64,000 bases of DNA from a virus (IMGVR_UViG_3300045125_000156), one strand, 5' to 3'; positions 353 to 61,969 are shown, counted from the first letter of the stretch. A program made the numbers and translations. Notes: generated from the letters alone by a model not told the origin.

Positions 353-1385
353 TCAGCAACGTGGTGCACCGCGTTGCTCTACCTTTTTGTCTGGATACAA
401 CTGCTCCAGAGCAGCGCAGCAGCTGACGCGGAAGCCGGTCAGAAGCAACGTCTCGCCGAATGAGCTGCTAATTGAGACCTCAGCAGCTGGTGCGGCCGTT
501 GTTTTGCGCGAGCCATGCGGGAGCCCTTTCCGCCGCTTGAGGCTTACAGGTCGTACCTTGCGCTTCTTCTTCCGCTGCTCGACAACCTCTGCGCCTACGC
601 TGCAGGCATCAACGTAGCCACAGTAATCGCACTGCCACCCGTTTCGGGGGTCGCTTGTTGTTCGTCGATCAGTTGAAGCTTCCGCGCCGACTTGTTTAAG
701 TAAGTAGCAAGCCAGGTCCGCAATCCGACTACGTCCTCTCGGGTCCAAGCCCAGGTCGCCGTTCTCGCGCGGAAACCAATCTACGCTGTCAGTGCCGATA
801 TAGTTGATCCCGCACTGCACCGCGTGCACCGGAAATTGGCCATGACCATGAGCATGTAGGCGTAGAACTGCGTTGAGTGCTCCTGAATCCGCTTCTTTTT
901 CCGCTCTTGTGATCGAGGACGATCATCACGTTATCGCGGGTAATCATGGCGTGGTCGAGCACTCCGCGCAGTAAGCCCGTATTGTCAAGGACGTACGCGT
1001 AAAGTCAGGCTTGATTGCCAGCTGGTGCTCGACAAACTCCTGGGTTACGCCGTGCGTCTCCTTGAATCGACGAATGCGCACGCCGAAGTCAGCAATGGCC
1101 GGAAGCCTCGTCAAAACTTCTCGATGCTCGTCGGTGGTCAGCTCGTCGCGGGCGGTGACATCGGTGAGCATCTTGGCGAGATCTTGCCCGTTCTGCTTGA
1201 GTTCGGCTTCCAGCAACGCGTGAGCAGCAACGCCAACCCGCGAAGAAGCTCTTACGGCCCTCCTTCTGCTTTCGCACGTACTTATAGTCAAACTGCACTC
1301 CGCAGAGATCGAGAAGGTTCGCTTTGGAGATAGACCACGGCCCGTGCTTCCAGAACGCGCTCGTCAAACATTTTGTCCCCTTCAC
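353..1385 (-). CDS. PD-(D/E)XK (Cas4/RecB-like) exonuclease, split by indels
   Basis: Consecutive frames give PWSISKANLLDLC..F.YKY, GVAAHALLE, VEHQL, LDHKSGK, TQFYAY and C-terminal WQCDYCGY..C, the ordered motifs of this family. Confidence 0.8.
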
Positions 1386-1485
1386 GCCGTGAATTTACGG
1401 CCAGATCAATCTAGCGAAAATAACCAACGGGAAAAGCCCCGAGGTCGCACGGGGCGACCTCGGGACTCTCCATACTCATCAGAGG

Positions 1486-2607
1486 TTATTCTTGCTGTAG
1501 TCCGGCAACGCCCCGGCAGCCGCCATCATCGCGGCCATGTCCGCCTGGGCGTTGAGAACGGAGCGCGCCCTTGGTAGGGCGGTCGTAAACCGAGCGCAGC
1601 TCGGGGGCATAGGCCTCGTGGAGAACGAGGCGCGCGAGCGTGCGGAGAACGCCGCGCTCTGCCGCTGTGGTCGGCGCGCCTTGCGGCGCATCATCGGTGA
1701 CGTGCGGAGTGGCCGTGAGCGAGAACCAACGGCCCTTGTCGTTACGCTCCTCGGCGACGCCAAGGTCGAACCACGCGTCCCAGGGCCGGCCCTTCTGACG
1801 GCGGATGGGCTCAACAGCCCTTCTTCCAGGCTTTGACCCTTCACGGTGAGGGCATAGAATGCCCTTGAAACCGTGAAGCACGAAGTAGATTCGCGCCTCG
1901 TCGGTGCAGCTGTCCGGGCGCCCATTTGCCGTTGGCGTACGGGCGGTGCGGACACGCAGCGCAGCCGCCATAACGGCTGCCGCGCACACGGTCGAGGAAT
2001 AGCAGATCGGCGCGCTTGCTGTTCCGGGTTCATGTCCGGAGGGACGGTGGAGCAGGTCATTCGACGAGAGCGCAGCTGCCGCGTCGGCCACCTGCAGGAT
2101 CGCAGCCTTGAAGGTCTTGCCGATCTTCAGAGAGCGGGCCTGCGCCTCGTTGAAGGCCGCCAGCACGAGGCCGTCGGAGAGTGTAAGCTGAACCCACGGG
2201 GCGGTTGCCGGGCGCGCGGGATCGTCACCCACGCCGTGATAGAGGGCTTGCAGCGAGAGGGATCTTGAAATCCACTCGCGCCGAGACAAAACCCTCGCGC
2301 ACCGGGTTGAGGCTGTCGATCATGTTGTTGAAAGCACTCCTGATCCTGCTCAGGAAGCGGCACGACCAATCGCGATCGAGGCTCGCCCTCTTCGGGCGCA
2401 CTCGTCACTAAAAAACAGTTGCCGGATGGAAGCTTCGGCAAAGCGTCTCGCCAGTCGGGAACGGCAAGCGCCGCCTCAGGCGCTCAGGCTCAGGCTCAGT
2501 GGCGGCCTCGACGACCGGAGTTCGGCACTGCTACCGGCGCGGTCTCCTGGGTGGTGATGGTCACGGGTGCCTCTTCGAGGGTGTTGGTTGGAATTTTTCG
2601 TAGCCAT
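1486..2607 (-). CDS. Hypothetical protein, possibly ssDNA-binding or recombination; frameshifted
   Basis: ATG at 2607 with AAGGAGG SD; overlapping ORFs 2127-2441, 1486-2289 and 1479-2060 appear to be one gene. Aromatic segment NDKGRWFSL and position in the replication block only weakly suggest the function. Confidence 0.35.
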
Positions 2608-2660
2608 AGGGCCTCCTTGCCTAACCGAAGCTGGGCGGGTAGATAATAAGCTAAGTAGCC

Positions 2661-3440: not shown

Positions 3441-3483
3441 TGGCCGCAAGGGCATCGCGGCCATGAGGGATTTCGCGTGAAGA

Positions 3484-4545
3484 TCAGCCCTCGGCTTCTT
3501 CCTCAGTCGCGATGGACTTCGGAAGCGCCTTGAGACCGGACGCGAGCTTAAGGCCGTCGAGCTTGCCGCGCTCGTAGGCGAGCTTGGACTCATCGACGTT
3601 CTCCCTCGACCGCATGCGCGAGATCTTCGCGTCGATGGAGTTGAGCAGCGCCCGGAGCTCAGCGGCCTTGACGATCGCGATGGCGTCGAGCGCGTACTTC
3701 TCCTCAGCCTCGGCCTCGACCTCAGCCTCGGCCTCAGTCTCCAGCCTCGCCGTCCTTCTTCGCCTTCTTCGCCGCCGCACGCCTCCTTGGCCGCCTTCTC
3801 GGCCGCCGCGAGCTTGGCCTCCAGGCGCTTGGCCGCCTCGTCGATGTCGTCGGCGGTCCAGCCCTTCTCGATCGCCTTGACGGCAATCGCGTATTGCTCG
3901 TCCCCATCCTTGACGGCCTTGAGCGGCGCGGATCTTCGTGCCCGTGCCGGGCTCAAGCTGGCCCTTGCGGACCATCTTCTGCACGCGGTCGTCGCAGTCG
4001 AAGACCGCGAGGTACTGCGAGACCTTGCTGTCGGCGACGCCGAGCTCGTCCTTGATCTGGGTCTGCTTGAGGCCGAACTCGTCGCGCAGCGAGCGCATGT
4101 AGTTCGCCTCGTCCCAGAACGAGAGGCTGCGGCGCTTGATGTTCTCGACACCGCAGGCGATGACGGCCTGGAGCAGGGTCAGGGTCTTGATGTGAACCGG
4201 GATGACCCGGTTCTTGTCGTTCGCGGCCGCGATTGCCGCGCGAACGCGCTGCCGGCCGGCAACGATCAGAGGCCGACCTTGCCGGTCTCCCTTGTGGCGA
4301 ACCGGGGTGACGAGCGGCGGCTGCAGGATGCCGTTCGCCTTGACGTCGTCCGCGAACGACGGCTCAAGCTTGATGTTCTCCGAGTCCGCGCGGGAGTCGA
4401 AGTTCGGAAAGATCAGCGAGTTCGGATCGACGTTGTCGGCGGTCTTGGTCGCCTCCAGCATCTCGAACGGAAACGTGTCGACGGCGTCGACGGTGGGGGT
4501 TGCGGCCTTGCGGGACTTCTTGGGGGTGGTCTCAGTCGTAGTCAT
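3484..4545 (-). CDS. parB: ParB/Spo0J-family protein (ParB N-terminal domain, HTH, acidic Ala/Glu-rich tail); one frameshift near 3930
   Basis: GILQPPLV, IVAGRQRVRAA (GxxRxxA motif), ENIKRRSLSFWDEA, and HTH GLKQTQIKDELGVADSKVSQYL; strong AGGAGGAG SD. Confidence 0.85.
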   Translation of the reverse strand: MTTTETTPKKSRKAATPTVDAVDTFPFEMLEATKTADNVDPNSLIFPNFDSRADSENIKLEPSFADDVKANGILQPPLVTPVRHKGDRQGRPLIVAGRQRVRAAIAAANDKNRVIPVHIKTLTLLQAVIACGVENIKRRSLSFWDEANYMRSLRDEFGLKQTQIKDELGVADSKVSQYLAVFDCDDRVQKMVRKGQLEPGTGTKIRAAQGRQGWGRAIRDCRQGDREGLDRRRHRRGGQAPGGQARGGREGGQGGVRRRRRRRRTARLETEAEAEVEAEAEEKYALDAIAIVKAAELRALLNSIDAKISRMRSRENVDESKLAYERGKLDGLKLASGLKALPKSIATEEEAEG

Positions 4546-5045: not shown

Positions 5046-5531
5046 TCAAATCTCGTCCTTGAAATCTTCGGGGTCCTTCCCGAACTCCTCGATCGACGGC
5101 GCGACCTGCACCCGAGAAAAACGATCGCGCGCTGGCTGATGCTGTGCCCGGGCGGGGTCAGGGATCTTACGAATGAACTCCTGGCTCTGCCCGACCATGG
5201 CTCGGATCGACTTCTCGTTTTGTAGGCGCTCCGGAAGAGTCTCTACGGCGTCAAGCACGCGATCGGGTTCGTTGCGAGCTTCTCGCGGCGGCGAGGGCGG
5301 CGGTTCAAACCGCCCGGCGCCCCAGGGCGCCGGTCCCGGTTCAGTCCGAGCTGGCGGTAAATTCACGGCGTGAACGCGGATGCCATCAACTTCTACGCTG
5401 ATGGTGCCGAGCTCCTGGTCGTAAAAGAGCCCGAACATCTCGGTGTCGGCGTCAGGTACTTCAAACCCCTGGCGCGTCAGATACTCACGAACCGCGAGCA
5501 GCACGTCATTCTGCGTCAGTGTGATCTTCAT
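5046..5531 (-). CDS. Hypothetical protein
   Basis: Intact 161-aa ORF (MKITLTQNDVLLAVREYL...) with GAGG SD, in an operon with the helicase. Confidence 0.65.
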   Translation of the reverse strand: MKITLTQNDVLLAVREYLTRQGFEVPDADTEMFGLFYDQELGTISVEVDGIRVHAVNLPPARTEPGPAPWGAGRFEPPPSPPREARNEPDRVLDAVETLPERLQNEKSIRAMVGQSQEFIRKIPDPARAQHQPARDRFSRVQVAPSIEEFGKDPEDFKDEI

Positions 5532-7470
5532 GGTCCCTCAGTACGTTGAGATACGCGGTGTTTGCCACCGGTTTAGCCACTTCAGCGCCGTACTTACAAC
5601 CCCTGCGGAAAGGGCGAATCTCGTCACGGGCGCAGTCATTCATACGCTCACAAGCCGCGCATGAAATCCGCTCCAGCATGGTGTACGCCACGTTATCCTT
5701 AAACGCGAGCGTTCTCGCCAAAAAGCCGTCTAGCGCCTGGGGGTGCGTGGACAGCAGGCGGTAGACAACCATGTTGCGCGTCTGTCCTGGACGATTATTG
5801 CGCTCAAGCGACTGCTTGTAGTGCGTCAGGTTCCAGGTCAGCGCGTAATAAATCATGTAATTTGCGGCCGTCAGCGTAACGCCGACACCGGAGCTTACCT
5901 GCCCGATGTACACCCGGCAGATCGGATCTGTTTGAAATTTGTGGCTCAGCTCCTCAATACGGTGCGTCGTGGAGCCGTCCACACGGACGTAGCCGTAACC
6001 AGATTCCGAAACGGCCGTCTCGATGTCATTGAGCTCCTCAAGGTACGTCCCCCAGACGATGACCTTGTTCGTGTCATCATCAGACAGCACGTTACCCAAG
6101 AGCTCTTTGAACGTCGCAAGCTTCGGGTTGGGGAGTCGTTTTATGGCCGTAGGAGGTTTTCTTTGTAAATGTGACACCGCTCCGTGTACGGGCGCACCCC
6201 GTTTTTAACGCAGCCCTGCACATGCTCGCAGCCGTCACAGACGAGCGGATCGGCGCCCTCAATAACGAAGCCTGAAACTAACTGCAAGAGCTTATTGACA
6301 AGAGCGCCACCGTGCGGGGTAGAAACTCCGCGACCGCGTAAAGCGTTGGACTCGGCGTACGCAGCAAAATCTTTGAGCCGCGCGATGCTGGCGTCATACT
6401 CCCGCGCTTGAGCCGAGGACAGGTCGAAGGGTACGTCAATGAACGTAACGGGCGGGAGGTCAATACACTCCTTCTTTTTCATGCGCGTCGCGATGCCTTC
6501 GACGCGCGCGTTCAGTTCATCCAGGTCGCGGTAGCCGTAGACCTGGTGCTTATTGAACTTTGAATAAACAAAGTGTTTTTGTTGATACGCATACCAGGGC
6601 ATGGGCATAAGCGCCGGCGAAAGAAAGCGCATCTGTGCATAGAGCTTGCCCGGATGATCCGCCGCTGTCCCCGAGAGTAAGTAGCGTCGGCACGCCTTGG
6701 CTGAGAGTGTCAGCGCCGCCTGCGTCTGGGAGCTTTCGTAGTTCCCGATGGAGTGGGACTCGTCAGAAGCAATCACCTGGTAATCCAAGTCTTTCAGGCG
6801 CTTGGGGTGTTTATTTTTGGGTCGAACTCAAGCCGCGCTCGCGCGTAGGAGAGTACAACTACGTCGGCGGTCTGGGCCGCCTCGCGTAACTTTGTCGGTG
6901 CCGTCCCAGATAACGGCGCGCAAAGCGCTCTGCGAGCAGCGGCGGACTTCGTTAACCCACGTAGGCAGCACTACCGGAGGCGCCAACACCAGCATGCGCT
7001 TGAGCTCGGGATTTTCACGGCGTGAAAGCCGGAAGCCGTCGATCATCGTACGCGTTTTGCCGGTGCCCATCTCCCAGAGGAAGAAAGAACGCCACCACGC
7101 GGCGATGCGGCGAATGCCTGAGTCTCTGGTGCCGGTAGGGCTCAAACCCCTTGGGGAATTCAAAATCTTCAGGCAGCTCGACATCTTCATCACGCCTGTA
7201 CGCCGACTTGGCGGTCTCCCAGACTTTGTGGGAGGCCTGCAAGTCCTTTATGAAAGAAAGCGCAGAATCAGTCCACTGGAGATCGGGGACTAAAACTTTC
7301 AGATCGTGCGCTGCCGAAAGGCCGAAAGGATAGTATGCTGGAAAGAGCCAATCGGTTCCTGACTGCACGGCGCCGATTACGCGCCGCCAGGGGTCAGGAG
7401 ACACGCTCGTGGGCGTGACTCGCCAGATGGGCGTAAGATTCAGGTGCTGACCAACAACGCTGGGTGCCAT
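5506..7470 (-). CDS. SNF2/SF2 DNA helicase, frameshifted
   Basis: PYRHQ (Q motif), WEMGTGKT (Walker A), IASDESH (DExH), LLSGT, and C-terminal SSGVGVTLTAAN and YKQSLERNNRPGQ motifs; ATG at 7470 with AAGGAG SD. Confidence 0.9.
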
Positions 7471-14840: not shown

Positions 14841-15432
14841 CATGTTGAGCGGGAGCCTGACTTCGACGTCGATCAAGCGCCCAGGCGAGCCAATGATTCA
14901 CGCCGTGAAAACGGAAGGCCCGCTCGGTAACCTGCTGAAGTCGATGGTCCCTGGGCCCTCGATGCACGCGATGCTCCGCGACATGGTGCCGTCGTCGATG
15001 AGCGGCGATGATTGCGGCTGCGACAACGTAGAAATCTTGAAGAAGCTGTCGTCCAAGAAGTACCAGCTGATCCTCGCGTACATTCATTACGGAGATCAAC
15101 TACGGGCGCTCTACCGGGACCGGCATCTACGAGCACTTTCAGGGCACCTGGAAGAAGAGCGCTCCCAGCTCTATCAGATCAACAAGAAGGTCACCGCCCT
15201 GGGGCATGACGCACCTTGTTGTCCGGGCGAAGTGCCGCCGGTGCCGCTCAACGACGCCAAGGCGATTTTTCGTGTCGCCCTGAAGATCGAAGAAGAATCG
15301 GTGCAACTCTGGTCCGATCTTTTCCGTCAAACCGACGACGACGTCGCCCTCAACGGCATGGCCCAGACGTATGCCCAGGAGTGCCAGGGGCACGCAGACG
15401 ATCTAAAGCGCTATCTGCGGAGCTGTGAATGA
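14821..15432 (+). CDS. Ferritin-like (bacterioferritin/Dps-like) four-helix-bundle protein
   Basis: Helical pattern AYIHYG..., HLEEERSQ...KVTALG, IEEE...W..LF, AQECQGHADDL with the E/ExxH spacing of ferritin-like folds. Confidence 0.65.
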   Translation: MNRKLADMLSGSLTSTSIKRPGEPMIHAVKTEGPLGNLLKSMVPGPSMHAMLRDMVPSSMSGDDCGCDNVEILKKLSSKKYQLILAYIHYGDQLRALYRDRHLRALSGHLEEERSQLYQINKKVTALGHDAPCCPGEVPPVPLNDAKAIFRVALKIEEESVQLWSDLFRQTDDDVALNGMAQTYAQECQGHADDLKRYLRSCE

Positions 15433-17635: not shown

Positions 17636-18177
17636 CCTCAAGATCTTCACGCCGTGAAACTAGCCGCCGAACGCCGATATTGGCGTCATACGGGCTGCAC
17701 AAGCTCGCGAACGCCCCACCTGGAATTTTTAGGCGCGCGGCTAACCGCCTATTTCGATATCGCCAGGGAGCCCTCAACGAAAGCACCGCCCGAGGCATCG
17801 TGGGGAGTGTTGGGGACATGGCCCGCGACATGATCTTTGGAAGCCCCCTGTCGCTTAAAGACCAGCTATTAAAGCACCGCGCCGAAACTGGCGGCTGGGG
17901 GCAAGCAATTGCCCGGCACTTTGGGGAATTTTATGTTCCCAGATCAACTGGCTCGACAACCATGGACGTCGTTAGCCGGGGCATGAGCTTAGGTTTTCCG
18001 GCCTACGAGCTCTATGGCGCAGCCACTACCGAAAACCCAGAAGTGCGCCGCCAGCGCATGGCAGGGGCTCTGGCAGGGCTTGCAGCCGCGCCCATAACCG
18101 GCTACTTGGGTTTACCAGGGGCCATTGCTTCAAGCGCTATCTCAAATCTTGCAAGCAAAGCGGTAGCAAGAACCTAA
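17633..18177 (+). CDS. Putative internal virion protein (K-x-A leader, Gly/Ala hydrophobic segment)
   Basis: MPQDLHAVKLAA, HKLANA and AGALAGLAAAPITGYLGLPG; frameshift near 17680. Confidence 0.55.
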
Positions 18178-23080: not shown

Positions 23081-23723
23081 TTGAGCGTGATGTTTTCACC
23101 TCGTGAAAACCGGGCGGAGCGGCGTCCGGACGAAGTCCAGATGGCGGCGGACCTGTACTTGGACAACGAGTACCGGCACGTCTTAAACGCCCTGTTGCTT
23201 GCGAACGCCAACGACGAGCAGGTCAGCGCCTCCCTCAATGTCCCTGAGTCTGTTCAGGCGTCTATCGCCATCTGTTTTTTGACTGTAAGACTTTCGCGCA
23301 CAACCTCGCACGAACCCGCTACGTCAAAGAGCTTGCCTGCGAGGAGCAACTCGAGTTCTTATATCAATTAGCCATTGAGCGCGGGCCCAGTGAACTGCTT
23401 GAGCGCTACCGGATTGGCCCTCGGCCAAAAACAGATCCAGAATTTGTACTGTCCGAGAGCCTCGCGGACATGTGGGGTAAGTTCCTCACGCATCGTGGAT
23501 ACAGCGTGACCTCCGACAACGCCCGAGAAGCTTTGAAATGGGGCGAGCGGCAATTTGCACCGCCAAGATTGTCATGGAGACAAACCGTGAGGAGCGGCGC
23601 GGCGTGAACGCTGTCGACGACCTGAGGATCGCCCTGGAAATAAAGAACGAAACAAAATCCATGACAGATCTCGGCATCCAGGCTGACGATCTGGTCGGGA
23701 GTAGCCTAGGATTAGGAGAGCCG
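23081..23723 (+). CDS. Hypothetical protein, frameshifted
   Basis: ORFs 23081-23371 and 23538-23846 have consistent coding character between structural genes. Confidence 0.45.
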
Positions 23724-25578: not shown

Positions 25579-26875
25579 ATGAAGATCTCTAATGAACTTC
25601 GCGCCACGCTGCGCTACGAAGGCTACGCGAAGCTCGCCTCTCAGGTCATGCGCGATCAGGGCGAGTACGTGGGCGACATCTCAGGTTTGGACACGGCGAT
25701 GAAATCCATGTGCCGTAAAAATTGCGGTTAACCGCCTCCAAATCAAGACACAGTCCTAGAAGGCACTGGCGTCTTGCCGCTACTGCAAGGGCGATAACAT
25801 GAGCCTATACGCCGCCTTTCACGCCGTGAAAAACGGCTCGGTGGACGACAAGGTCGCCTTCTGGCAGCTCTGCAGAACGGCAGCGAGCAGCCCGCGCGGG
25901 CGGCCTCTATGCTCGGAAAGCTGGACAAAGGTCGCCTACGACATCTGGGCGGAAAGCTACGAGCGCGGAGCTTCGCCGAACGGCCGACCGCATGACGCGA
26001 GAGGCGTTTGCCGGGTCGTTTGGCTCGGCCGCCGTAGTCGAAGGCACGCTTACAAAGATGGCCAGGGCCGGCAGCAGTGACGAGCACGAGCTCGCCAAAA
26101 TGCACCGTTGGGTTGCTGAAAGCGCCGTGCAAGACCTGACGCACATGACGAAAAACGCCAACGTCATGGCCACACTGAAAAAGCCCGGGTGATGGGGGCC
26201 GTCATTGGCGCGCTGCCCGTTTCGGAGCCGGCGTCGGGGCGATGCAGAACAAAGACGCCCCGGGAAAAGGCGCCTTGGTCGGCGCAGTGCCGGGGAGCCA
26301 TCGCGGGCTGGGCGATAGGCCGGAGCCACATGCCCGTCGCCGATCCAGTGGCGACAGCGATGTCGAGGCGCATTTTTAGGCAACGTTGGCAGGGCGCTAT
26401 ACGATGCGCCTACTATGAAGGCTAAATCGGACGCTCTCCGAAAAAATCTTCGGGAAGAAAAAGCCGACATATTGCCCGAGTCTTGGCGAAGGCGCGCGAG
26501 CCGCCCTTGAGCGCCGACCGAGCCGGGCGAAGCCGTCGCCGAGGCCCCAGGGCCAGACCCGGAATTAGAGGGTTTGGGTCGTGCGAACAAGGTCGTGGAC
26601 AACATGATCTTCCTGGCCAACCAGGCCAGTTTGCCGCAGCTGGCGCAGCAATGGGCCAGATGCGGGATCAACTGGCGTCGCACTTTGCGGAAGGCCACGC
26701 CTACTTGCCCGCAACCGAGCTCCAGCACCACTTTGCACAGAGCGAGCATGCCCGGCGCTTTTATGAAAAAGTACAAAAAGCAGCGCTTTGGCTCGCCGAC
26801 GACGCTGGTTCCAAGAAGGCTGCCCAACCTCGACTGGTTTTCTTGGCGCGCTCCGCGCATGCGGCTTCAGCTCCA
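25579..26875 (+). CDS. Cluster of 2-3 small K-x-A-bearing proteins; boundaries uncertain because of indels
   Basis: MKISNELR..YAKLAS; MSLYAAFHAVK..DDKVAF..MTKNAN; VQKAAL..SKKAA. Confidence 0.45.
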
Positions 26876-26877: not shown

Positions 26878-29320
26878 ATGCGCAAGATCTTTGAGCTCGA
26901 AGACCGGTTTGCGACGGGCGAGCCGACGATTCGACTCGTCATGCTGCCTGACGCAGGCGTGGCGAAGCGCGACACTTTCGAGAAGCGTGCTGATTCTGCG
27001 GCCGACTCCCGGCCTATGAGTACCTGAAGACGGTTGCACCCAAAGATGGTCACTCCATCGTTCTCGTAAACGCCCTTGGAGCCTACGAGGCGTACGATGA
27101 CAACCGAAATGGGGATGCCTTCCTCGACCGCCCGGTGAAGGCTGGCGAAGCCGTTCGCTGCGGCCACAAGTCCTGCCAAGCTGGGGCTTGGGTCGCCGCC
27201 GACGAAGTACTGTCCAAGCACTGACAAGACCTTCGAGAAATTTGGCGGGATCTATAAGCACCACGTCAACAAGGACCCTCAAAATCCTTAGGCAAAGTGC
27301 TCAAAGCCGTCTGGAATCCCAAGATGCAGCGCGTCGAGCTGCTACTTGAGATCGTCAACGACCGCGACCAAGACCTGGCCAAAAAAATTGCGGATGGCGA
27401 GTATCCGGCCGTGTCGATGGGCTGTTTAAGCGCGGGCACCCCAATCACCCTGGCTGACGGGCGGCGCATCGCCGTCGAGAACATCGAAGTTGGGCACCGG
27501 GTCCGAACGCACCTTGGAAACAATCACCGCGTGTTCGAGCTGCACCGCCGAACGTACTCGCTAGCGTAATACACACCATCAAGCCGGAGGCCGCTCCCGC
27601 CCTGGTGGTGACGCACGAACACCCTTTCACGTCGTGAAAAAATAGACGTGAAAAAGCGAGACGCCAAAGGCGCCTGCGTGGAACTCCGAGGTTGCTCCGC
27701 AAGGCGTTTGGAAGCTAGCTGAAGAGCTTGACCCTGAAGAACACTACCTGCTTCAGCCCATCAATCGTGAAGTCGCGACGCCCTGTATGCAACCTGGGCC
27801 TCGCGCGCCTCCTCGGGTACTACTTGGCCGAAGGAAACGTACTGCGCGACAAAAGTGAAAAGCTGTGCGGGGTGGAATTTACGTGCCACGAAAAGATGAA
27901 CTCCTCCTCGAACTGCCCGACCTTTGTAAGGATCTGGGGCTCTCGGAGCCGTACATAATCACCTGAAACAGCGCGGTGGCCCGAAGCGCGCGCGTGTTTG
28001 ACGCCGACCTCGCCGAGAAATTAGCCTTACCTGCAGGCTGCGGAGCCAAAGCAAAGCTCCTTGATGCGTCGGTCATGGCGTGGGCGCCGACGTATCAGCG
28101 CGTTATTTGGGGCGTACGCCAACGGCGACGGGTGCGGGAACAAAGACGGAAGTCTGCAGGTGTCTACGGCATCTGCCGACCTTGCGGCACAGTGGCTCGA
28201 CCTTTTGCCCTGTCTCGACATCCTGGCGTCACACCAGGTCTTAAGCCACAAGCCGAACGCTTTGGTAAAATCGCGACGACGGAGCACGTCGTATTTATCG
28301 GCGCTCAGTGGGGCAACAAGGGCTACGCGACGTATGCGCGAAGGTAAAGCCCCACGAGTTAAAGACCCGAAAAGAGTCCCGCAAGATCTTCGAGACTACG
28401 TCGTAACGCCCATTCGCAGCATAGAGCGCGCGTCGGGAATTATGCCGGTGTATAACTTTGAGGTCGAAGAAGATAACAGCTACGTCGCAGGGGGCGTCGC
28501 CGTTCACAACTGCCACGTCAAATGGGATGTTTGCTCCATCTGCGGCCATCGAGGCCCCACACGCAAGGACTACTGGTGAGCACGCGCGAAACAAGATGCG
28601 GCAGGTTCTCTCTAACGGAGAGAAGGTCTGCGTCCACAACCCAAGCCCCGCTTCTTTGACATCAGCTTCGTTTTCGCCCGGCAGACCCGACGGGGTTCAT
28701 GCTCAAAAAAGTAGCCTCGGCCTACGAGCTCTGGTCAGGGCCGAGCGCGAAGATGGGCGAGGTTGCTGACGAATACGAGCAGAAAATTGCCGACGCTCGA
28801 AAGCTGGGGGACATCCGCAAACGCCTGCTGGGCAAGTCGCTACGGCAAGGCAAGACGACGTAGACAAGTATCGTCCTGTCGCAAAAGCGAACGCTAAAAG
28901 TCGCTGGCCCGCCGAAGACAAAGACATTGCGAGCTGGCCCGCTACCCGCTATCGCAAGTACTGGCAACGTTCTCCGCAAAGAACGCGGCGCTATCGACAA
29001 GCGACGTCGCACGGCTTTTTTGAAGAAAGCCGGCGTGTCCAGCCCAGATTGGCTACTGGACCGCGTCGTCGCCATGCAACCGATTCTGGAGGCCGGACTT
29101 GCCAGGGCGCCGTCGATTGGCGAGAAAACCGCCGCGCTCCCTTGAAATGACGTCAAAGAGCGTAAACGCCTCCCTGTTCGACACGGTTGAGGCGTGGGTT
29201 GAAAAATACGCCGGGCTCTCTGATTTTGGCTCAGGCGATTTTTACGGCAGCACTTCAAACCTGCCGATTCCCGGCGCAGGATATTACGCGGCCGCTGCGC
29301 CCCTCGAACGGACGTTCTGA
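26878..29320 (+). CDS. Prohead (head maturation) serine protease with intein and C-terminal extension, frameshifted
   Basis: NRNGDAF, KHHVNKDPQ..LG (putative His), VSMG|CHVKWDVCSICG (putative Ser plus Cys cluster), FFDISFV; HK97/assemblin-like motif order; located upstream of the capsid genes. Confidence 0.7.
27423..28510 (+). mobile_element. Intein with LAGLIDADG homing endonuclease
   Basis: Begins CLSAGTPITLADG (block A); LARLLGYYLAEG and ALFGAYANGDG (blocks C and E); ends VYNFEVEEDNSYVAGGVAVHN followed by Cys+1. Confidence 0.92.
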
Positions 29321-33900: not shown

Positions 33901-34497
33901 CGTCGTTCAAAGACATTGAAAGCCCGGTGGGCGGACTTCCCGGCCCCATGATGGACGGGCCGCCCTACAGTGAAAGACGGAGTCAGACTATTTCACGCGG
34001 TGAAACAGGCCTTCCGCCACGACCGCATGGAAGAGCGCACGCCCTTCCACAAGTCGTACGTCAATCGGCTTCAGTTAGCCGTTGACACGCTCAATCTCAA
34101 GGGCAACCAGTACCATCTTCCACTTCGCGCCTAAAGACGGCACCGTCGCAGGCTAGCGCAGTTCAAGCGTGTACCCAACCGAAAGACGCCAGTGCTAACA
34201 ACGGTCCTGGGGCCCCGGATGACGCCCGGCGGACAGAACATCGAATCCATGATGAAAATGGGCTCAGCGCCAGAGACAAACACCACGCCCTCGGGCGTCC
34301 AGCAAATTCGACACCGACCACATCGACCCCGGCCGCCGGAGAGCACTTCTTGGAACCGCCGGCATCGACACCTGTACGCGCCAGAGACGGGCCGTTACGC
34401 CATCGACAAAGCTTTTGACGGCGTACTCACAAACCCGCGTCACGAGGAGTCATCGAAAACGGCGCGCTTCCTTCAGGAAGTCACGGACATGCGATGA
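33897..34497 (+). CDS. One or two small hypothetical proteins
   Basis: ORFs 33897-34085 and 34192-34497 are co-directional with overlapping stops and starts. Confidence 0.35.
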
Positions 34498-39043: not shown

Positions 39044-39620
39044 TGAGCCATTATCAATATGACCACCTCCTAATCCAGCATTTTGAAAAAAATGCAGGGT
39101 TTGGAAACGTCATGTGGCAGGGCACCAAGGCCGTAGGTCGCGGCGCCATGCACGTAGGTCGCGGCGCGTTGGGCTTTGATGCCAAAGCGGGCGCGGGTCT
39201 CAGTGGGCGCATTTTAACGGGCGCTGGCGCTATCGGGGGCGCCGTCGCGCCCGTCGCTGCTGGCGCCTTGCAAATGAGCAATACGGGCCGGGCGGTCACA
39301 GCTTCACTCCGTGAAATGGGCCACGTGCACAACATGCAGAAGCATGCGGAGCACGGGGTGCTTCATAAAGCGCTACACGTCGCTCCCTACCTGGGCTGGG
39401 CCGGAAGTCATTTATTGGAAGATACGGCCGTCGGCAAAAAACACCCGTGGCTTCCAAAAGCAATAAGCACCGCGTCCTACCTCGGCTTAGCAGGAAATGC
39501 GGCCCATGACGCGTACACAAACCCCCAAAGAGCGAGTCACCGGGGCCGTAGACGCCGCCGCACTTATGGCAATGCTCGGGGCCGACGTTGCACGTTGGCG
39601 CCGCCCAGCGACTCCAGGCC
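39044..39620 (+). CDS. Putative internal virion protein (K-x-A leader, Gly-rich hydrophobic segments)
   Basis: MSHYQYDHLLIQHFEKNAG, MQKHAE and GAGAIGGAVAPVAAGA. Confidence 0.55.
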
Positions 39621-40434: not shown

Positions 40435-41990
40435 ATGGCCCCTCCTCGTCGACAGCGCCCTTCTGAACAGCTTCCTACCCGTCAAGACCCGCTAATCCCA
40501 AACCCTCAGGGGTTTGCGATGGGCGGTGCGGCAACTGCCGGCCCTGCAAACATCATCGAGCGGGGAGTCATCATGGCGGTTGACGCCCAACGCCAAATCT
40601 ACCGGGTTCGGCTCAACAGCGGCCGGACGTTGATGATGGCCAGAATCCGGAACCATCTTGGCGACGTAAACGTTCTCCCCGTGGGGGCCTTCGTCGCTGT
40701 TACCTTTGGGCTGGGGCTCCCATACATCATGGGGGTGTTGCCGCCAGAATCGGCAAACACCCAAGAAGAAAACCCCATCACCGTGACAGACGCCGAAGGC
40801 TACGGGGGAAACGACCCGCTTTTGGCAAGAAACATGGGTGCGAGTTCCCGGGGGCGCGATGAGCCTCGCGACATGGTACCAGGCGACTTCGTCGGCCTGA
40901 GCCCCGATGGTGCTTCCGTAGCGGCGCTTCACGGGAAAGTCGCGCAGATCCGAGGCTCGGCACTAGCCAAGGTCCAGGCCTTTGGCGACCGAGACCTCGT
41001 ACAGATCGTCGCAGGGACGATACGGACTCTGTCGTGGATGGGGGAGTCACGAATCGAAAATAACGATGGGAAAACATCGTTCATCTGGCGCGGCGGCTGC
41101 GACCAGCTCTCTCAGACCGGCCCAGACGAAGAGCGCTACACAATCAAGCTCGACGTCGGGGACACCGGAAACATGATCAACCTTGAGGTGTGTAACCGAG
41201 AAAACCAGGCTGTCTTCCGGTTCCACGTTGATCCTCAAGGGCAGTGTGAGCTTTTGCGGCTGGCGGATTTAACCAACATTCGGGAGCGGACAGCAATCAA
41301 ACCCACCCTATCCGTTACAACGGCACCACACAGACCGAGGTTACAGGGGGCGCTACGCGGACAGGTGCAGGGGCCGGTGCAGGAGATTCATCAGGCCGGG
41401 CGCACCGAAGAAGTCACCGAGAATTACAACCTGACTGTCGGGCAGGACTTCGTAGTTCAGGCCGGACGAGACCTGCGTTTAACCGCCAGCGGGAACGGCT
41501 ACGAGTTTATCACGGGCGACAAAACCTCAACGAGTAGCGGCGACTACAAAATGGAAGTCGTAACGCCTGGTAAAGTTCACGCCGTGAAAACTACAGCGGG
41601 CGAGGCCTCCGTCGAGACCACCACCGGCAATTTCCGCGTAACCACGCAGGGCGGTCAGGTTTTATTGGACGCCGGATTAGGCCTCGCCCGAGTAGAAGCC
41701 ACTCAGATTGTTTTAGCCGCAGGGTCTGGCAGCATCGGCCTTACCGCGCCCGCCGGGAGCATCACCATCGGCGCTAACGCAACGTCTGGCGCAACCAGAA
41801 GTGGGAAGAGATGAACGCCGCCATTCAGGCCATGGCGCAACAGATCTCTACCCTGAACGCCTTGGTCGCATCGCACGTCCATGGAGTGGGCCCAACGTCT
41901 CTTACGCTGGTCCCGCTCGTCGTCCCCATCAGCGTCAACCTCAATCCGCCCGCAGCGGCGTACGCCTGGGGTAACTTATACTTTCCAGCG
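40435..41990 (+). CDS. Baseplate spike or hub (gpV/gp5-like OB fold plus beta-helix)
   Basis: GVIMAVD...YRVRL OB-fold start; repetitive beta strands (VTENYNLTVGQDFVVQAG); terminal HVHG. Confidence 0.7.
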
Positions 41991-44338: not shown

Positions 44339-46437
44339 ATGAGTGAGCCGAGCGCGCCTCACGGCGTGAAAATCCTGACGGCGATGGGCGAGATGATTTT
44401 GAGAATACACCGGCTAGAGTTACTGTCCAAACTTGCCCGCGCCAAAGCGCAAATGGACGCGATGGCCCAGGCCACAAAGGAGTCCCCTCGTGACATGGAC
44501 ATCGGAAACTCCGAGCGCTCCTGAGGCGCTGACGACAATCGGCAATCAAATCACTGCGGAGTTAAACAGCGCCGCTACCACTTTGCGCACGGCAAGCGCG
44601 GCGGCAAGAGCCGCATCTCTTTTCGCGCTGCAGCAGAAGAGGCGGCAGCTACCTTTAGCCAACCTCGCCATTCAAACTGCAATCCGCACGATAAACGGCT
44701 TATTGGACACGTTGCTCGACTCAACCGGCGTTTACGTACTGCCCATCCCGCTACCGAAGCTAGGACTCGCCAAATATTTTCCCACAGATACTCCGCCTCA
44801 ATACAGTCAGTCGTTGTTGGCCCGCCCCAGCGCAGAAGGACAACAGCTCATCAGCGCGCCGACCAATGCCCTAGCCGAACGGCTACCGGGGGCGGCGCAG
44901 GGAGACTTAGAGCAAAACCCTGTCTGGCAGCAGTTCATCAACCCCTCGTCGATGATGCTGGGTGGGAACCCTTACATTCTCAAAACAATCTCAGAGGCCC
45001 TGTACGACCGGCGCGACGTGAACCGACCAAGGCTCACAGGGACCGCGTACTGGGGCTACATGCTCAGCGTCGCCGGGGCGAGCGATGTCACGGCCCTTAT
45101 GAACACGGCTCTTTATTTTAGTCGGTTAATCCGATCCTTAGGGAACAGCAACACCGTCTCCCCTGACGCCGGGCTGTCAGACATTGTTCCTGAAAACGTG
45201 ACCGCCACCCTGTCCGGCCGTGGCGGATTTGCCGTAATCCAATGGGATCCGATCGCCGTAAGCCGGACGCTCCGCAGTTATGACGGCTCTACCGTCACGA
45301 TTACAAAATACGCCGTAATCCGCGCCAAAGGTCTTCAGGCGCGCACTGCGCGCGGAACCGAAGAGCTGTTTACCGGCAACGCGAAAGAGCTGACGCAGGG
45401 GCAGCGGGGTCTGTTTGACGCAGTTGTGCTCAAGGTTGCCGACTACGACAGCGTTACGACGCGGTATGTCGACGAAACCGGACTCGAAGAGAACGCGACG
45501 TACTACTACTTCGTAGCCTTTGCTACAAAAATAACGCCTGCGATTCCGCCGGTGCTTGACGTAAATAACCAGCCCCTGCCGGGCCAGCTGACAACTCAAA
45601 CCCTCGGATTTAGCCGGCTGTCGAGCGCGGCCGAGTTTCGCAAACCTTCACCGCGTGAAAACCCCCAGCTATTGAACGTAAACCGCCTCGGGACCGCGCC
45701 GGACTGGATGAAATGCGCCGGCGCGATTGGCATGGTGCCGCCGCTCAATCGGTTCATAGGACAGCTGCAGGAATTCCTGAATGGGCTAGCGTCCAGGGCG
45801 TCAAACCTTTCCACGGTCAACAACCAGTACATCGCGTTCTTGAATCGCCAGGTCGCGCTCTACGAGAGCCGGGCCACGAGATCTCTCAAAAAATACAAAA
45901 CCTCACCCGCTATTTTGACCCCGGGCAGCTACAGGCCGGACTCCATACGACATTTCGAACGGGCAGCGGCGCTGCCCCGAGCTCGTGGCGGACGTTGCCA
46001 TCGCCCTGGGCGAAAGCAACGATCCTGATTGGCCGCCATTTACTCAAGGCGATGAGTTCGTTACTGGCTTCATGGCGCTGGCCGTCGCCCCAACGCAGCG
46101 GCGATAGACCCCGTAATCGAACTTCTGAAGCTTCTCTTTGCGCCAACAGCGGATGCTGACCCGTGCTCCAGGGAATCGAGTCGATCAACACGGACCTTGC
46201 GGCAGCGGAAGCCAACCTTATCGCGCAGGTACGGGGGTAGCGGCTTGCCCGCAACGCCGGCGAATACATTCAATCAGACTTGACGCCGCGCGCGCCTGGG
46301 CAGGGAGACTCGACGTGCGATTGAAACTGACTACACCCGTAGGCTTTTGCGAAGCCAACACCCTCACAGGTTTGCTCTGGGAAGTAATCCGCCATAGGTT
46401 CGAGCACCTTTTGGCCGGAGATGGATGGGTAGACTGA
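44339..46437 (+). CDS. Putative baseplate or tail proteins (small ORF 44339-44524 plus a large frameshifted ORF)
   Basis: Long ORF 44433-46028 with an Fn3/Ig-like segment (VIQWDP..Y.V.R..YVDE...YYYFV). Confidence 0.5.
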
Positions 46438-48219: not shown

Positions 48220-49033
48220 ATGTCGCTCGTCATCAACGGCAAAAAGATCGAGACGCCCGGGCTGCAAACCATCTCGTGGCTTGACGATCCGAAGATCCCA
48301 AAAGCTGCAGACTTCAATCCGCGCGAGATGTGGATTCGCGCCATCGTTCTTCACATGGTGCACGGAAAATCCGGCCGGCTTCTTCCGGGGTTCTCCAAGC
48401 CCTCGTCCCGCGCTAAGGGCTACGCGCGATACCAGGCCAACACAGCGCGCAAGGTTTCGTGGGACTACACCGTCGGCACCGATGGGACGATCATCGCATC
48501 CAACGACCCCGTCAAAACGTACACCTGGCACGCGGGGACGTGAACCCCTACACCGTTGGTATCGAGTTCGTACAAGAAGACAACGGCGATCTCTACGAAG
48601 GCCAGATGGACGTCGTCGTTCGTTTTCTCGACGTCCTCACGCAGAGCTAGCTGACGCCGGACACCCCATCCAGCGGCAGGTGCCCATGACCTCCAACGGC
48701 GAGCCGGTCAAGGGTGTCATCGCTCGCATCGAAAATAACGACAGCGCCAAGCAGGTTGTCGGCATCTACGGCCACCGCAACCAGACGGGGCAAAAACCTG
48801 TCGGCGACCCCGGAGACGCCGTCTTTCACGCGCTCCTCCGCGCCGGCTACAAGGGCTTCAACCTCGACGCCAAAGACGACGTCACTTTCTGGAAAGACGT
48901 GCAAACGCGGCTCGGCGTATCTCCCGCTGACGGCATCCCCGGGCGCGCGACACAGCAAGCGCTCCTCAAGGCCGGCAACCCCCACGGACTCTGGGTAGAG
49001 CGCCCCCGGAGACCGCTGATTTTCACGACGTGA
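48220..49033 (+). CDS. Endolysin: amidase_2 N-acetylmuramoyl-L-alanine amidase plus peptidoglycan-binding domain, frameshifted
   Basis: AIVLH, SWDYTV..DG..WHAG, NPYTVGIE, YGH...K..DPG; C-terminal VQTRLGV..DGIPG.AT..AL. Confidence 0.85.
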
Positions 49034-49053
49034 AAGCCTACACTTAGAGCACC

Positions 49054-53139: not shown

Positions 53140-53646
53140 CTACTCTTCACGCCGTGAAACGATCACTCGTCTGTCGGAAGTCCCGCGCATGCGCGCATAG
53201 AGATCCGGCAAGCGGTTGACCGCTAGTCCGCCTGCGGCTCCAGCGAGAGTCGCCCCGCCAGTGATGGCCAGACGCTTTAGCAAAGCATTGCGGGCAAGGT
53301 TATATCTAGTCGGCGATACTCCCGAAAGCGGCGGGTCGGGAAGCTCGCTATACGCCTGCCTTAGCGCGGGAAACGTCAGGGCCCCCGCCCCGATTCCGCC
53401 CACCCCCATAAGCGCCATGTCCCGGCCGCTCAGCAGGGGCGCAGCTTCTTCAACTTCTTCAGCGGCAACTTTGAAACGATAGTGTCCGACCTTCGGCATT
53501 GGCGGCCTCATTGCGGTTGAAATGGAAGTAGGCGTCGGCACCGGCGGCATCGGCGGCGGAATGTTCGCCCCCGGTGATGGCCCACTCATCGCCGGCGTGC
53601 CCATGGGCTGCGGCATCATGCCGCCGTTGGTCGCGTGTTTTCTCAT
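53140..53646 (-). CDS. Putative internal virion protein (K-x-A motifs, Pro-rich region, glycine zippers)
   Basis: MRKHAT, FKVAAE, GVGGIGAGAL and GGATLAGAAGGLA. Confidence 0.65.
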   Translation of the reverse strand: MRKHATNGGMMPQPMGTPAMSGPSPGANIPPPMPPVPTPTSISTAMRPPMPKVGHYRFKVAAEEVEEAAPLLSGRDMALMGVGGIGAGALTFPALRQAYSELPDPPLSGVSPTRYNLARNALLKRLAITGGATLAGAAGGLAVNRLPDLYARMRGTSDRRVIVSRREE

Positions 53647-55330: not shown

Positions 55331-55334
55331 AATT

Positions 55335-58530: not shown

Positions 58531-61500
58531 ACAATCCCTTCGATTACCGCACCAGCCGGAATGCCTCCGATGCTCGTCGCGTTTCCACGTGTGCCGGCGG
58601 TCGTGCGGTAATAGTAGGTGGTGACCGTGCCGCCCGGGTCGAGCGTCACGCCGTTGCGCGGCGGTGCGCTCCTGCCGCCGAACGCGACGCTGGGGTTGCC
58701 GTGGTGAAGCCGTTGTAGGTGGCCATGAAGACCTCAGCTCAGCGTCGGGGTGGAGGAGTCCCAGGGCACCCAAACGCCCGAGGCGTAGATCCAGTGCGAG
58801 AGCTCCCGTCGACGAGCTTGTCGCCGTTGGCGCGACCGCCGCCACGCTGCACCACCGCAGCCGCGAGCTGTAGCCCACCCACCCGGTCGACGTGCTTGAG
58901 GCGCCCGGACGGGCAACCGGGATCAGGAAGGGCACTTCCTGCCCCCGGAGGGCGTCTGGCCGATCTGCGCGCTCGTCGTGTTCGCGGCGGGCGCGGTTTG
59001 TGAGCCCGACTGGTCGTACAGGATCTGGAACGACACCCGCGCGTTGGCCGCAGCGGGAATCCAGCGCTTTTGAGCGATGATCGAGCCGCCCGCAGTGACC
59101 TGAAATTGCGAGCCCACCGCCGTCAGGCCCGTGCTGTTGTAGTAGCCGACCCAGATGTGTGGGTCGGTGTCCTCGCTCGCCGTGGTGCCGCTGAGCATGG
59201 GCTCGTCGGCGAGGAAGGTCAGCGTGTTACCGCCGCCCAGCGTGATGGCAAAGGCCGTCCATCCGTTGGGGCTCGCGTCGTCGACCGAGACGAACCACCG
59301 GCCGGGCGTCGCGGAGAACAGCGACGCCGCGCCGAAGAGGGCCGTGGCGTCGCTCGCGGTGCCCGCCGTCGTCGCGCTCGGAGAGCCCCCGGTGAAGCCC
59401 GCGATGGAGCGCGACACGGTCCACGTCGCGTCGCCCGAGCCGCGCTGGAAGAGCCACTCGCGCGAGCCGCCCGGTGCGGCCACGGCGGAACCACGGCGCT
59501 TGAGTTGCCGAGATTGCCCGCGCCGCTGCCATATCCGGTGCCGCTGAAGGGGGTGCCCCATAGGGGTTGTTCGTGAGGTTGACGTTATCGGCAGACAATC
59601 CGTTGGTCAACCCGCCAGCGTTTGTCCCGACAAGCCCATCCGACCACCTCTTCACGATCCAGCCGCCCGCGCAGAGCTGCGTGAGCAGGGTGTAGATCGC
59701 GGCAGTGCCGTTCGCCGGGGATGTTGTGTTCGCGATGATGGCCATGTCTCAGCTCCAGGTGATTCGTAGCGCCGCCGAATTCACGACGACGTAGTCCGGC
59801 TGCGGTGCCGCCTGTTACCGACGCACGAAGCCTCGTAGGTCTTCGCTGGACTCGGTGACGAAGGGGTGTGAATGCCGCTGTGTGCGAGGTCGCGGCGGTC
59901 GTGGACGTAACCGAAACCGTAGCGACTGCCGACGCTGCCACGTCTCGATAGACTTGAACCGCCATCGCATCAACTCCACGTCACTCGAAGATTTACGCCG
60001 TAGACGAGGGCATAATCCGCTACCGCCCCGCCTGATTTCTTGAGACGAAGTTCAAACACTTTTGCGGCCGACGGCGCGGCTACGGGTTCAGTGTCAAACG
60101 TTGCCGTTGTTGTCGTGAATGTCGTCGTTGCCGCATCTGCCGCATCCGTAACGTTATACAACGTTATCATACCGGTGACACCTGCAACAACTTGTCCGAT
60201 GAACTCCAGCGAGAGCACCGTCGACTTGTTCGTGATTGCATAGCTGCTGGGGTCGAAATAAATCCCGCCAAGAACAACGTCGACTGTCGAGGTCGTGCTC
60301 GCAGCCGGCGCACAAACAGGCAACAGGATCACCGTTGACGCACGCGGCGTTACCCAGACCAAGATTCTGTACGCGCCGTCGCAACGTCAGCCGACGCGAG
60401 AAAGGTCGAGACGTCAGCGTTGGTCGTGGTGAAGGCGCTAACGCCATCCGAAATGATGGCAGTGCCGGCGGGCTGAGAGCCGAGCTGTGCGTCCAAAACG
60501 TCACTGACGAGATCCCCCGCCAACTTGGTCGTGTAGGACGTCCCGGCGCCGGTGCTAATCAGGACTTCGTCGGCGGCGGTGGCGGTCGGAAACGCCGCGC
60601 CGGCAATCGCCCAGACCGCTGTGGGGTCCTCGTACTCTCCGCTAACAAGGACGAGCCCTTGCCCGGCTTGCAGCGGAGAAACGGCCTCCCCGAGAAACGT
60701 AAGCGCGCCCCGATTGAAGTTCGACGCGCTGATTGGCGTCCGTCGCCCGGGTCAAACCCCACGTAGTGCCATCGTAGGTCGATAGCACGATAGATCCCGG
60801 TGGCCTCATCCGCTGCCGGGGGTCCTGATGCGATCGACGTCGAAACGACCATCACGCGCTACGCGGTTCGTGAGCGCAAGCGGTACGCCGCAGTTTTGAT
60901 TACCAGCTACAAGGAGGTTGTACGACGCGTTGACGATTTCAAGGACGTGCGGGGTGTTGCCGTAATCCCAGCCGACGCCTTTGTCCGTATCCAGAAGCCG
61001 GACTACCGTTCTGGACGCTCTCATGGAAGTCATACCCGCCAGCCGCCGCCGTGATTTGCGTGGCTAGCGACGTCCCATTGAGAAGCGTGCCCGCCGGAAG
61101 ATCAACAGCGGCGTTGAGCTTTATCGCCGGTAATCAGGCCGTTGTCGAGTTGATTGACGTCGGTGATAAGGCCGTCGGAGGCCGTCTTAAAAGAGGTAGC
61201 TCGTGGGCATCTCAGGCCTCCTTTATTGACGCGCTGTAATTCACGGACGTGCCAACGAGCAACTCTATATCAATAACGAGATCACTGCCGGAAATAGTGT
61301 AGACGAGCGGCAGAGGATTATAGATCCCGCCGCCCCCGCTCGTCGACACCACCAGATCGATCTCTGTGGCCGCCGAATCAATCATCGCTCGAAGATAAAC
61401 CGATCTCTGCGGCTGCCGGGCCGGTCTCTTCAAGCGCGAGATTGATCTCTACGTTCCGGTACCCCGTAAAGCCCGTCATGATCCCGGGGAGCGTCACCTG

Positions 61501-61703
61501 GATCGGGCCTGAGGCGTTCAACGCGCCTGTAGTGCGAACGGGCAGTCCCGGAGGCGTTCCCCAGACCGGCTGCGCGCCGTCTGATACGAGCGACTCCCAG
61601 CGGGCGCGATTGGCAGCGGTACCCAATCTGCACCGTCAGACTAAACCAGGTCCCCGGCGGCTTGGCCGGGGATGGCAAAGACAATGGTGCGGCTGATCAG
61701 CAT
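58530..61703 (-). CDS. Cluster of tail-fibre-like or structural genes (about 58530-59745, 59750-61030 and 61212-61703), heavily frameshifted
   Basis: Thr/Gly/Ser-rich beta-strand proteins with repeated TLYNVTD..AT...T.T-type modules. Confidence 0.5.
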
Positions 61704-61969
61704 GCAGGAAGGATAAGATTCACGGCGTGAAAATAAAGCTACCGAGGGATAACTTCGACCGGCACGGGCTGTCGCACCCGATGCATAACATCGATAACGT
61801 CATTCGCGAAGTCACTGAGGTCAGGTGGAAAGTGTAGCTTCGGTTTGGCGCCTTGCCCCGGCACCCCCACCAAAAATTCCGGAAGAAACCGCCCCGGGCG
61901 CTTCAAGTAGTAATTCTTCGCCTGTCGATGGAAAGGCGCGACGCTGAAACAGGGGATTTCCCTCACGCG

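Follow-up and report, generated by a model that had tools for sequence, protein, structure and literature searches.

The viral DNA IMGVR_UViG_3300045125_000156, of which a stretch of 64,000 nt was analysed as a whole (the window), carries a short palindrome, TTCAC-N3-GTGAA, that recurs along the stretch and in the genomes of related phages. Comparison of these phages showed purifying selection on the motif at the DNA level. The palindrome is very probably a double-stranded DNA site for a dimeric protein, selectively kept at about 50 evenly spread places per genome, and its reader is predicted to be the phage's own partner-less ParB-family protein (probability about 0.55). The array is a known kind of phage feature, here with parS half-site arms.

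A dispersed palindrome in the window

The pattern TTCACNNNGTGAA occurs as 17 exact copies in the window, where dinucleotide-preserving shuffles gave a mean of 0.04 and none of 100 held more than one. All 17 stand at the coordinates given in an earlier, sequence-only reading of the same DNA, which had also counted five single substitutions and one insertion as near copies. Near copies do exist, although with up to one mismatch allowed 24 matches were found against 1.39 expected, that is, seven single-substitution copies. A de novo scan for gapped palindromes ranked the TTCAC-N3-GTGAA word far above all others in each genome; TCACG-N-CGTGA was enriched as well, indicating that the inner bases belong to the site.

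The consensus derived from a logo of 74 sites in relatives is tTTCACgNcGTGAAa, or t(60%)-TTCAC-g(75%)-N-c(87%)-GTGAA-a(58%), with G at position 6 in 75% and C at position 8 in 87% of the sites. The extension of the arms by T and A, already noticed in the window, is thus shared by about 60% and 58% of these sites, respectively. The spacer is strictly 3 bp: spacers of 0, 2 and 4 bp gave no copies and a 1-bp spacer zero or one per genome, the spacer-less canonical parS being absent from these phage genomes. The reversed pattern, used as a control, had no copies in any of the relatives G001, G003 and G004.

The phage family

The window has about 60% G+C and a phage-like gene content. A megablast search with 20 kb of it against cultured phages gave no match, and the public sequencing runs in which parts of it occur come from lake, freshwater and soil metagenomes. 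Nine IMG/VR loci were recovered by a protein search with the RNA polymerase. In whole records the motif has 39 copies in G001 (131 kb, syntenic with the window at about 85% DNA identity), 18 in G003 (52 kb) and 17 in G004 (51 kb). An exact-pattern scan of viral contigs, the matches of which were mostly chance singletons, also led to G005 (40 copies in 94 kb) and G006 (38 copies in 88 kb). Genomes of the family are 130-180 kb long and encode their own RNA polymerase, in relatives a single beta-beta' fusion open reading frame (ORF) of about 1850-2000 aa (the first ORF of L156, L158 and L160); the fusion is broken by a LAGLIDADG domain in some members. With 17-40 copies per related contig, and the motif present at each locus with a ParB 36-100% identical, its attribution to the phage lineage has held up.

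Two exact copies, 4.8 kb apart, were also seen in G007, an apparently unrelated viral contig of 117 kb, at 6220 and 11000 of L169 (G007:24000-42000), where they flank a gene for a ParB N-terminal domain. This pair may be due to chance, because one of the copies was the reason why the contig was found.

The reading frames of the window itself are broken. A simple codon-model gene caller gave a coding fraction of 0.46, against 89-94% in relatives; ORFs of 1000-2000 aa in relatives are split in the window, and about eight one- or two-base indels per kb separate it from G001. An alternative genetic code behind the short ORFs was rejected, as the relatives have long ORFs under table 11, which points to frameshifts instead. 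The window is therefore probably an error-rich assembly in which frame-based arguments are unsafe, and the positions of sites relative to genes were taken from relatives.

The sites are listed below in coordinates of the 64,000-nt window; no strand is assigned to palindromic sites.

1381..1393, palindrome TTCACGCCGTGAA; motif at the orthologous place in G001 and G003
5362..5374, palindrome TTCACGGCGTGAA; retained in G001
7014..7026, palindrome within the SNF2-helicase gene, at about nt 434 of orthologues; seven genomes, rare codons TCA, CGT and GAA
9482..9494, palindrome TTCACGGGGTGAA; one arm altered in G001 (GTGAG)
14897..14909, palindrome near an ORF 5' end, directly after the RNA polymerase genes; conserved in G001 and G003 apart from the centre (GCC to GAC)
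17646..17658, palindrome at which similarity to G001 and G003 stops in the alignment
23095..23107, long-armed palindrome (GTTTTCAC-CTC-GTGAAAAC), from exact match and folding
25818..25830, palindrome, from exact match and comparison with relatives
27626..27638, palindrome (exact match); G001 counterpart within an ORF of 1013 aa
31230..31242, palindrome retained in G001 and G003
33992..34004, palindrome retained in G001, G003 and G004
39303..39315, palindrome at which similarity to G001 restarts in the alignment
41576..41588, intragenic palindrome at about nt 1141, deep in the gene; position shared with G001 and G003
45647..45659, palindrome deep in a gene (about nt 1157-1214), from exact match and relatives' ORFs
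49022..49034, intergenic palindrome, from exact match and relatives' ORFs
53146..53158, palindrome at which similarity to G001 stops in the alignment
61719..61731, intergenic palindrome at which similarity to G001 stops in the alignment

Location, spacing and selection

Of the 39 sites in G001, 12 are intergenic or at a gene edge, eight are no more than 130 nt from where the longest ORF starts, and 17 are deep in genes, some of which exceed 1000 aa. In relatives about 60-70% of the sites fall within ORFs and about 45% deep in long genes; gene borders are enriched about two- to three-fold, yet the signal is not purely intergenic. The positions in G001 agree with the earlier estimate that about half of the sites are near gene borders. 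The accompanying claim that the motif is embedded in coding sequence stands for the relatives, whereas the broken frames of the window cannot show it.

The proposal, first made from the window, that the target of selection is the DNA rather than the protein is upheld by several lines of evidence. Intragenic sites use two frames, read as H-x-V-K and S-R-R-E (TGA would fall in the third frame). When synonymous codons were shuffled in three relatives, the 27, 13 and 11 intragenic sites observed compared with 1.8, 1.05 and 0.69 in the shuffled sequences, the maxima over 300 shuffles being 7, 4 and 4. Site places are kept in orthologous regions of G003 and G004 despite diverging flanks and a variable central triplet: over pairs with an alignment spanning the site, identity was 93% in the arms, 82% in the centre and 69% in the ±30-nt flanks, and the full motif was retained in eight of nine spanning pairs, from relatives about 70% identical. 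The same gene positions carry sites even in contigs with a ParB just 36-53% identical to the reference ParB. These deeply conserved places are:

nt 434-451 of the SNF2 helicase gene
nt 299-304 of the DNA polymerase A gene
nt 932-940 of a 3.4-kb ORF
a few nt past the stop of the PD-(D/E)XK gene
22-30 nt upstream of the second PD-(D/E)XK gene

At the SNF2 helicase site, all seven genomes compared show CGN-CGT-GAA after a TCA or TTA codon, and the adjacent codons vary synonymously. TCA, CGT and GAA make up 9%, 16% and 40% of their synonymous families, so that rare codons are fixed here and synonymous positions are conserved in orthologues.

The sites are also more evenly spaced than expected by chance. 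The coefficient of variation (CV) of the gaps was 0.45 (window), 0.54, 0.26 and 0.50, against 0.92-0.96 for random placement (P ≤ 0.003); for the window taken alone, 0.45 compared with 0.92 (P = 0.0004), with a smallest gap of 1652 bp. Smallest gaps ranged from 763 to 1652 bp, against random medians of 60-160 bp, and mean spacing from 2.3 to 3.8 kb. The resemblance to parS and matS geometry that had been pointed out is in keeping with these results, the motif behaving like the binding site of a dimeric protein.

A ParB-family protein as the candidate reader

The genes of the window that bear on the reader are the following.

3484..4545, minus strand, ParB-family gene, candidate reader (PHROG ParB-like; Pfam HTH_ParB and ParB_N; structure matches)
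about 2660-3480, plus strand, sigma-region-2 stretch matching the relatives' gene beside ParB; appears frameshifted
10649-14439, RNA-polymerase beta-like genes, split over three frames here

Comparison with orthologues indicated that the middle part of the window's ParB gene is garbled by frameshifts, and the protein was studied in an intact orthologue of 352 aa (L013:5214-6272, minus strand). It matches Pfam HTH_ParB with E = 1.6e-14 and ParB_N with 24.4 bits, slightly below the cut-off of 26.3 bits. Among solved structures it matches chains of Spo0J, ParB and Noc (best E = 5.7e-13), with alignments that run through the nucleotide-binding motifs GxxRxxA (box II) and ENxxR (box III), AGRQRVRAA and ENIKR of the phage protein corresponding to GERRYRAA and ENLQR of Spo0J. 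Residues G97, R98, R100, N135 and R138 are invariant across 15 members of the family. An AlphaFold2 model (pLDDT, the predicted local distance difference test, 79) gave template modelling (TM) scores of 0.77 against Caulobacter ParB-parS, 0.72 against KorB, 0.82-0.86 against the Noc DNA-binding domain on its binding site (6y93) and 0.73 against 6s6h. Disorder is predicted for the N-terminus and for an acidic linker, which is followed by conserved predicted helices at residues 293-345, a candidate C-terminal dimerisation domain. By its motifs and its modelled fold, the phage protein is a true ParB/Noc/KorB-type protein.

The half-site itself points to this family. TTTCAC/GTGAAA is the core of canonical parS (TGTTTCAC|GTGAAACA; PMC7383237), with the halves 3 bp further apart; P1 box A and the VirB boxes are similar to it (PMC3905869). 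The equivalents of the Caulobacter parS-contacting residues Q162, G170 and R204 are kept, and that of N178 is Gln (residue list of PMC7383237).

The ParB homologues that are 36-100% identical all lie in one syntenic module with the gene order RNA polymerase beta-beta' fusion, SNF2 helicase, PD-(D/E)XK, ParB, sigma-region-2, second PD-(D/E)XK and DNA polymerase A. ParB is a syntenic core gene in every relative from which the replication module was recovered, and each ParB locus carries the motif, with six to eight full copies per 20 kb; the most distant locus has two full copies plus shorter TCACGNCGTGA forms. In every relative with a neighbouring gene called, the gene adjoining parB encodes a protein with sigma-70 region 2 only; it is convergent with parB.

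ParA (PF13614 and PF01656) was not found in the complete genome G002 nor in G001, G005, G009 and G010, and both profiles were found in 14 of 14 control genomes. A partition centromere was rejected, given the lack of ParA in these five genomes and the unclustered sites. Another known activity of ParB proteins, activation of a thymine dioxygenase (PMC13229309), does not fit, as the ParBs concerned are without a DNA-binding domain; the Tet_JBP domain was not found here, in a search that had no positive control.

Presence and absence across relatives also link protein and motif. Salmonella phage Arash and Vibrio phage D69 have the fused RNA polymerase in common with the family, at about 35% identity. 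Their complete records gave no match to HTH_ParB, nor that of Arash to ParB_N, and no dispersed palindrome rose above four copies in the 100 kb and 50 kb scanned, in a scan that recovered the repeat of mycobacteriophage Corndog as positive control.

A sister clade offers a second comparison. The complete 172-kb genome G002 (L023-L031), which has terminal repeats, encodes a ParB 35% identical and has no copy of the window's motif. It holds instead 46 TACGNCGTA cores and about 80 TACNNNGTAAA(G) sites, with a spacing CV of 0.66 against 0.98 by chance. This sister motif can be derived from that of the window by replacing C with T and, symmetrically, G with A, and it is one-sided: TACGNCGTAAAG. Among the 46 cores the AAG flank is on the right in 24, on the left in 17 and on both sides in none; three further contigs of the clade (L165-L167) show the same pattern, with no two-sided site. 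The recognition helix of ParB reads SEGxVSQ in the sister clade and (A/S)(D/N/S)(S/A)xV(S/T)Q in that of the window. As this difference tracks the clades, it agrees with ParB reading the site and is not independent proof; residue-by-residue covariation of the helix with the C or T form of the motif is, for the same reason, consistent with the idea but not independent evidence.

Several observations weigh against ParB as the reader. G004 and G006 have the motif, and no ParB was seen in the 29% and 51% of their genomes examined. The co-occurrence of protein and motif rests on few independent lineages, of which Arash and D69 may be one, and many phages have ParB genes. A one-sided motif, as in the sister clade, would not usually be expected of a clamp loader that is symmetric, although there is a precedent in VirB, related to ParB, which recognises a single half of its inverted repeat (PMC3905869). 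The residue R173, which reads the outer G1 of parS and is invariant in chromosomal ParB (PMC7383237), is Asp in the phage protein. The match to parS is thus not explained residue by residue, although the change is in keeping with a motif that lacks the outer TG. Finally, contigs of bacterial metagenome-assembled genomes (MAGs) hold the same word, with no ParB nearby.

Alternative explanations

These MAG contigs bear most directly on the possibility that another dimeric DNA-binding protein, of phage or host, binds the sites and that ParB is a bystander. In prokaryote genomes, 115 of the 120 matches listed were single, chance-like copies, and no host emerged from among them. The MAG contigs carry the word in arrays with a 21-22-bp period, and these tandem arrays consist of full parS half-sites with a 3-bp spacer (TGTTTCAC-N3-GTGAAACA):

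L268:6380-6470
L191:6270-6400
L258:7320-7400
L279:6270-6330
L184:5610-5650 and 6965-7135

Their neighbours are genes for a purF-like enzyme, an amidohydrolase, FecR/TonB and a DUF4143 ATPase, and they look like operator arrays of some regulator; other helix-turn-helix proteins can therefore probably read the word. The loss of the residue for the G1 base of parS likewise suits another reader, as does the fact that most genes of the phage family are without annotation. Against this, ParB is the only identified DNA-binding core gene whose family reads this half-site, and ParB and motif are jointly present and jointly absent across relatives. A different reader seems possible but doubtful.

In a second group of explanations the sites are not stably bound but serve some DNA transaction, be it nicking or cutting at specific sites, recombination at hot spots that shuffle modules, or priming of the lagging strand. 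The even spacing of 2-3.5 kb falls in the range of Okazaki fragments, the ParB gene is flanked by two PD-(D/E)XK nuclease genes, nick-associated motifs are conserved in other phage families (PMC11780129), and the repeats of Cluster O mycobacteriophages have mediated deletions (PMC4351075). Moreover, of 33 boundaries in the alignment of window and G001, four fall within 25 nt of a site, against 0.56 expected (P = 0.002). The break points concerned, 2-11 nt from a site, are:

17669
39301
53142
61733

These break points fit either sites that mark module borders or copies that served as recombination points. No such excess was seen against G003 or G004, however, and location at gene borders could alone produce it. 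Known primase sites are trinucleotides, double-strand cuts at about 50 sites would break up the genome, and the known nick motifs (T5, tf and Rembedalsseter) are asymmetric and confined to one strand, whereas a palindrome is necessarily on both. Nick-associated motifs were rejected on this ground, and a DNA transaction in general appears improbable.

Least likely is a transcription signal, such as a promoter or a stoperator-like block for the phage RNA polymerase and its sigma, or a hairpin in RNA or single-stranded DNA. About a third of the sites are intergenic and about a fifth within 130 nt of ORF starts; the site upstream of the second nuclease gene is found in four distant relatives; and the phage encodes an RNA polymerase and, beside ParB, a sigma-region-2 protein. 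Even so, the sites do not follow the direction of genes. With each site read along the local gene, GCC stands at the centre in 19 and GGC in 17 cases, the T and A extensions are equally frequent, and the one-sided sister motif runs 46 times with and 42 times against the gene direction, with no long orientation runs (P = 0.09). The sites deep in long ORFs are at conserved positions. As single-stranded DNA, typical sites have a folding energy near -3 kcal/mol (z-scores from -1 to -1.5), and the long-armed copy at 23095 is the sole notable one; T-tracts are missing, and no hairpin is formed by the sister motif. Unlike arms are found at conserved positions (TTTAC...GTGAA, once TTCAC...GTAAA), so the arms need not pair with each other. 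The lack of orientation and the weak hairpins make a promoter, terminator or RNA role unlikely, and the whole group very improbable. The regulatory role entertained in the sequence-only reading loses ground accordingly, a classical operator or promoter being unlikely for sites that are symmetric to genes and often deep within them.

Intrinsic terminators, N4-type hairpin promoters, single-strand initiation (ssi) signals and cruciforms were rejected for the weak folds, mixed arms and missing orientation, and stoperators of the Cluster A mycobacteriophage kind, which are asymmetric and oriented with transcription, for the symmetry of motif and triplets and the balance of the sister motif.

Proposed mechanism and significance

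If the phage ParB is the reader, one helix-turn-helix domain would contact each half-site TT(C/T)AC(G), as in parS, P1 box A and the VirB boxes, and the fixed 3-bp spacer would set the geometry of the dimer; the preferred target proposed for the protein is TTTCACGCCGTGAAA. By analogy with ParB, Noc and KorB, we infer that it acts as a clamp dependent on cytidine triphosphate (CTP): it would bind CTP, close at a site and then slide off, and sites each 2-3.5 kb would keep the entire genome in reach of clamps. Candidate outcomes of such coating are transcription control, the marking or protecting of phage DNA, and compaction. One specific version, rather unlikely as it stands, is that ParB-CTP clamps coating the genome would serve as mobile activators or identity marks that steer the phage RNA polymerase and the region-2-only sigma to phage DNA, functionally akin to the T4 gp45 clamp with gp55 but made from ParB. 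A genome-wide ParB label of 'self' might also guard the DNA from host defences.

Since 2015, evenly tiled palindromes have stood out as a puzzling feature of Cluster O mycobacteriophages. The same architecture in unrelated large freshwater phages, with parS half-site arms and ParB as a core gene, provides a testable candidate reader and suggests orphan ParB clamps with genome-wide site arrays as a general phage strategy. The strict 3-bp insertion, together with the C-to-T and one-sided variants of the sister clade, constitutes natural material on how far ParB dimers tolerate changes in half-site spacing and asymmetry. If the prediction is true, ParB clamp biology would reach beyond segregation and plasmid silencing into the lytic phage cycle.

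Comparison with known systems

Chromosomal ParABS systems share with these phages identical half-sites (TTTCAC/GTGAAA), the same protein domain layout with GxxRxxA and ENxxR, and a tolerance of intragenic sites. They differ in the 16-bp parS itself, with a spacer of 0 instead of 3 bp and canonical parS absent from the phages. In the phages, moreover, no ParA was found, the 17-40 copies tile the genome and are not clustered, and the R173 equivalent is Asp.

Noc and its Noc-binding sites (NBS) in Bacillus (PMC7383237) resemble the phage system as an orphan ParB paralogue with altered half-site specificity and dozens of dispersed sites, and the DNA-binding domain of the phage model superposes on Noc-NBS. 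The NBS, like parS, is without a central spacer. Noc works on a cellular chromosome, in division control. It has an N-terminal membrane-targeting helix, whereas the N-terminus of the phage ParB is predicted to be disordered.

KorB of plasmid RK2 acts together with KorA and with a partner of the ParA type, and most of its 12 sites are associated with promoters. It is an HTH-ParB CTP clamp that loads at dispersed palindromes, the OB operators, and slides up to 1.5 kb, which lets it work at a distance (PMC11790492). This sliding range is one of about half the site spacing found here. Several short palindromes dispersed over a replicon are common to both systems, and the modelled fold of the phage ParB matches KorB. 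The phage, on the other hand, has about 50 evenly tiled sites, many of them intragenic, and no ParA was found; the OB operators lie near promoters, and the phage sites, enriched at gene borders, are nevertheless often deep in genes.

Cluster O mycobacteriophages, with their 17-bp dyad repeat (PMC4351075, PMC6439249), offer the closest precedent, so that the feature, not recognised as described in the sequence-only reading, is of a known kind: 7-N3-7 palindromes are there found in the same distribution, with 31-34 copies of TGTTCGG-N3-CCGAACA, invariant arms and a variable 3-bp centre (PMC4351075). The 34 sites of Corndog comprise 14 intergenic ones, 10 near 5' ends and 10 internal ones. The authors predicted for the repeat a dimeric binder that takes no part in regulating initiation (PMC4351075), and drew no link from the repeat to ParB. 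Corndog gp90 is 33% identical to the ParB described here over 144 aa, from the N-domain into the start of the helix-turn-helix; it scores in Pfam for ParB_N only, in contrast to the clear HTH_ParB of the present protein. The arm sequence differs as well, the arms of the window's family being the canonical parS half-site, and Cluster O is unrelated to this family of 130-180 kb phages with their own RNA polymerase. The two arrays have the following in common: dozens of copies, at least 30 in a genome, or roughly one in every 2-3 kb, whose arms are invariant around a 3-bp centre that varies; a mix of intergenic, 5'-proximal and deep intragenic sites; positions conserved among relatives, with occasional recombination between copies; and an apparently lytic phage that has no ParA and encodes a ParB-domain protein.

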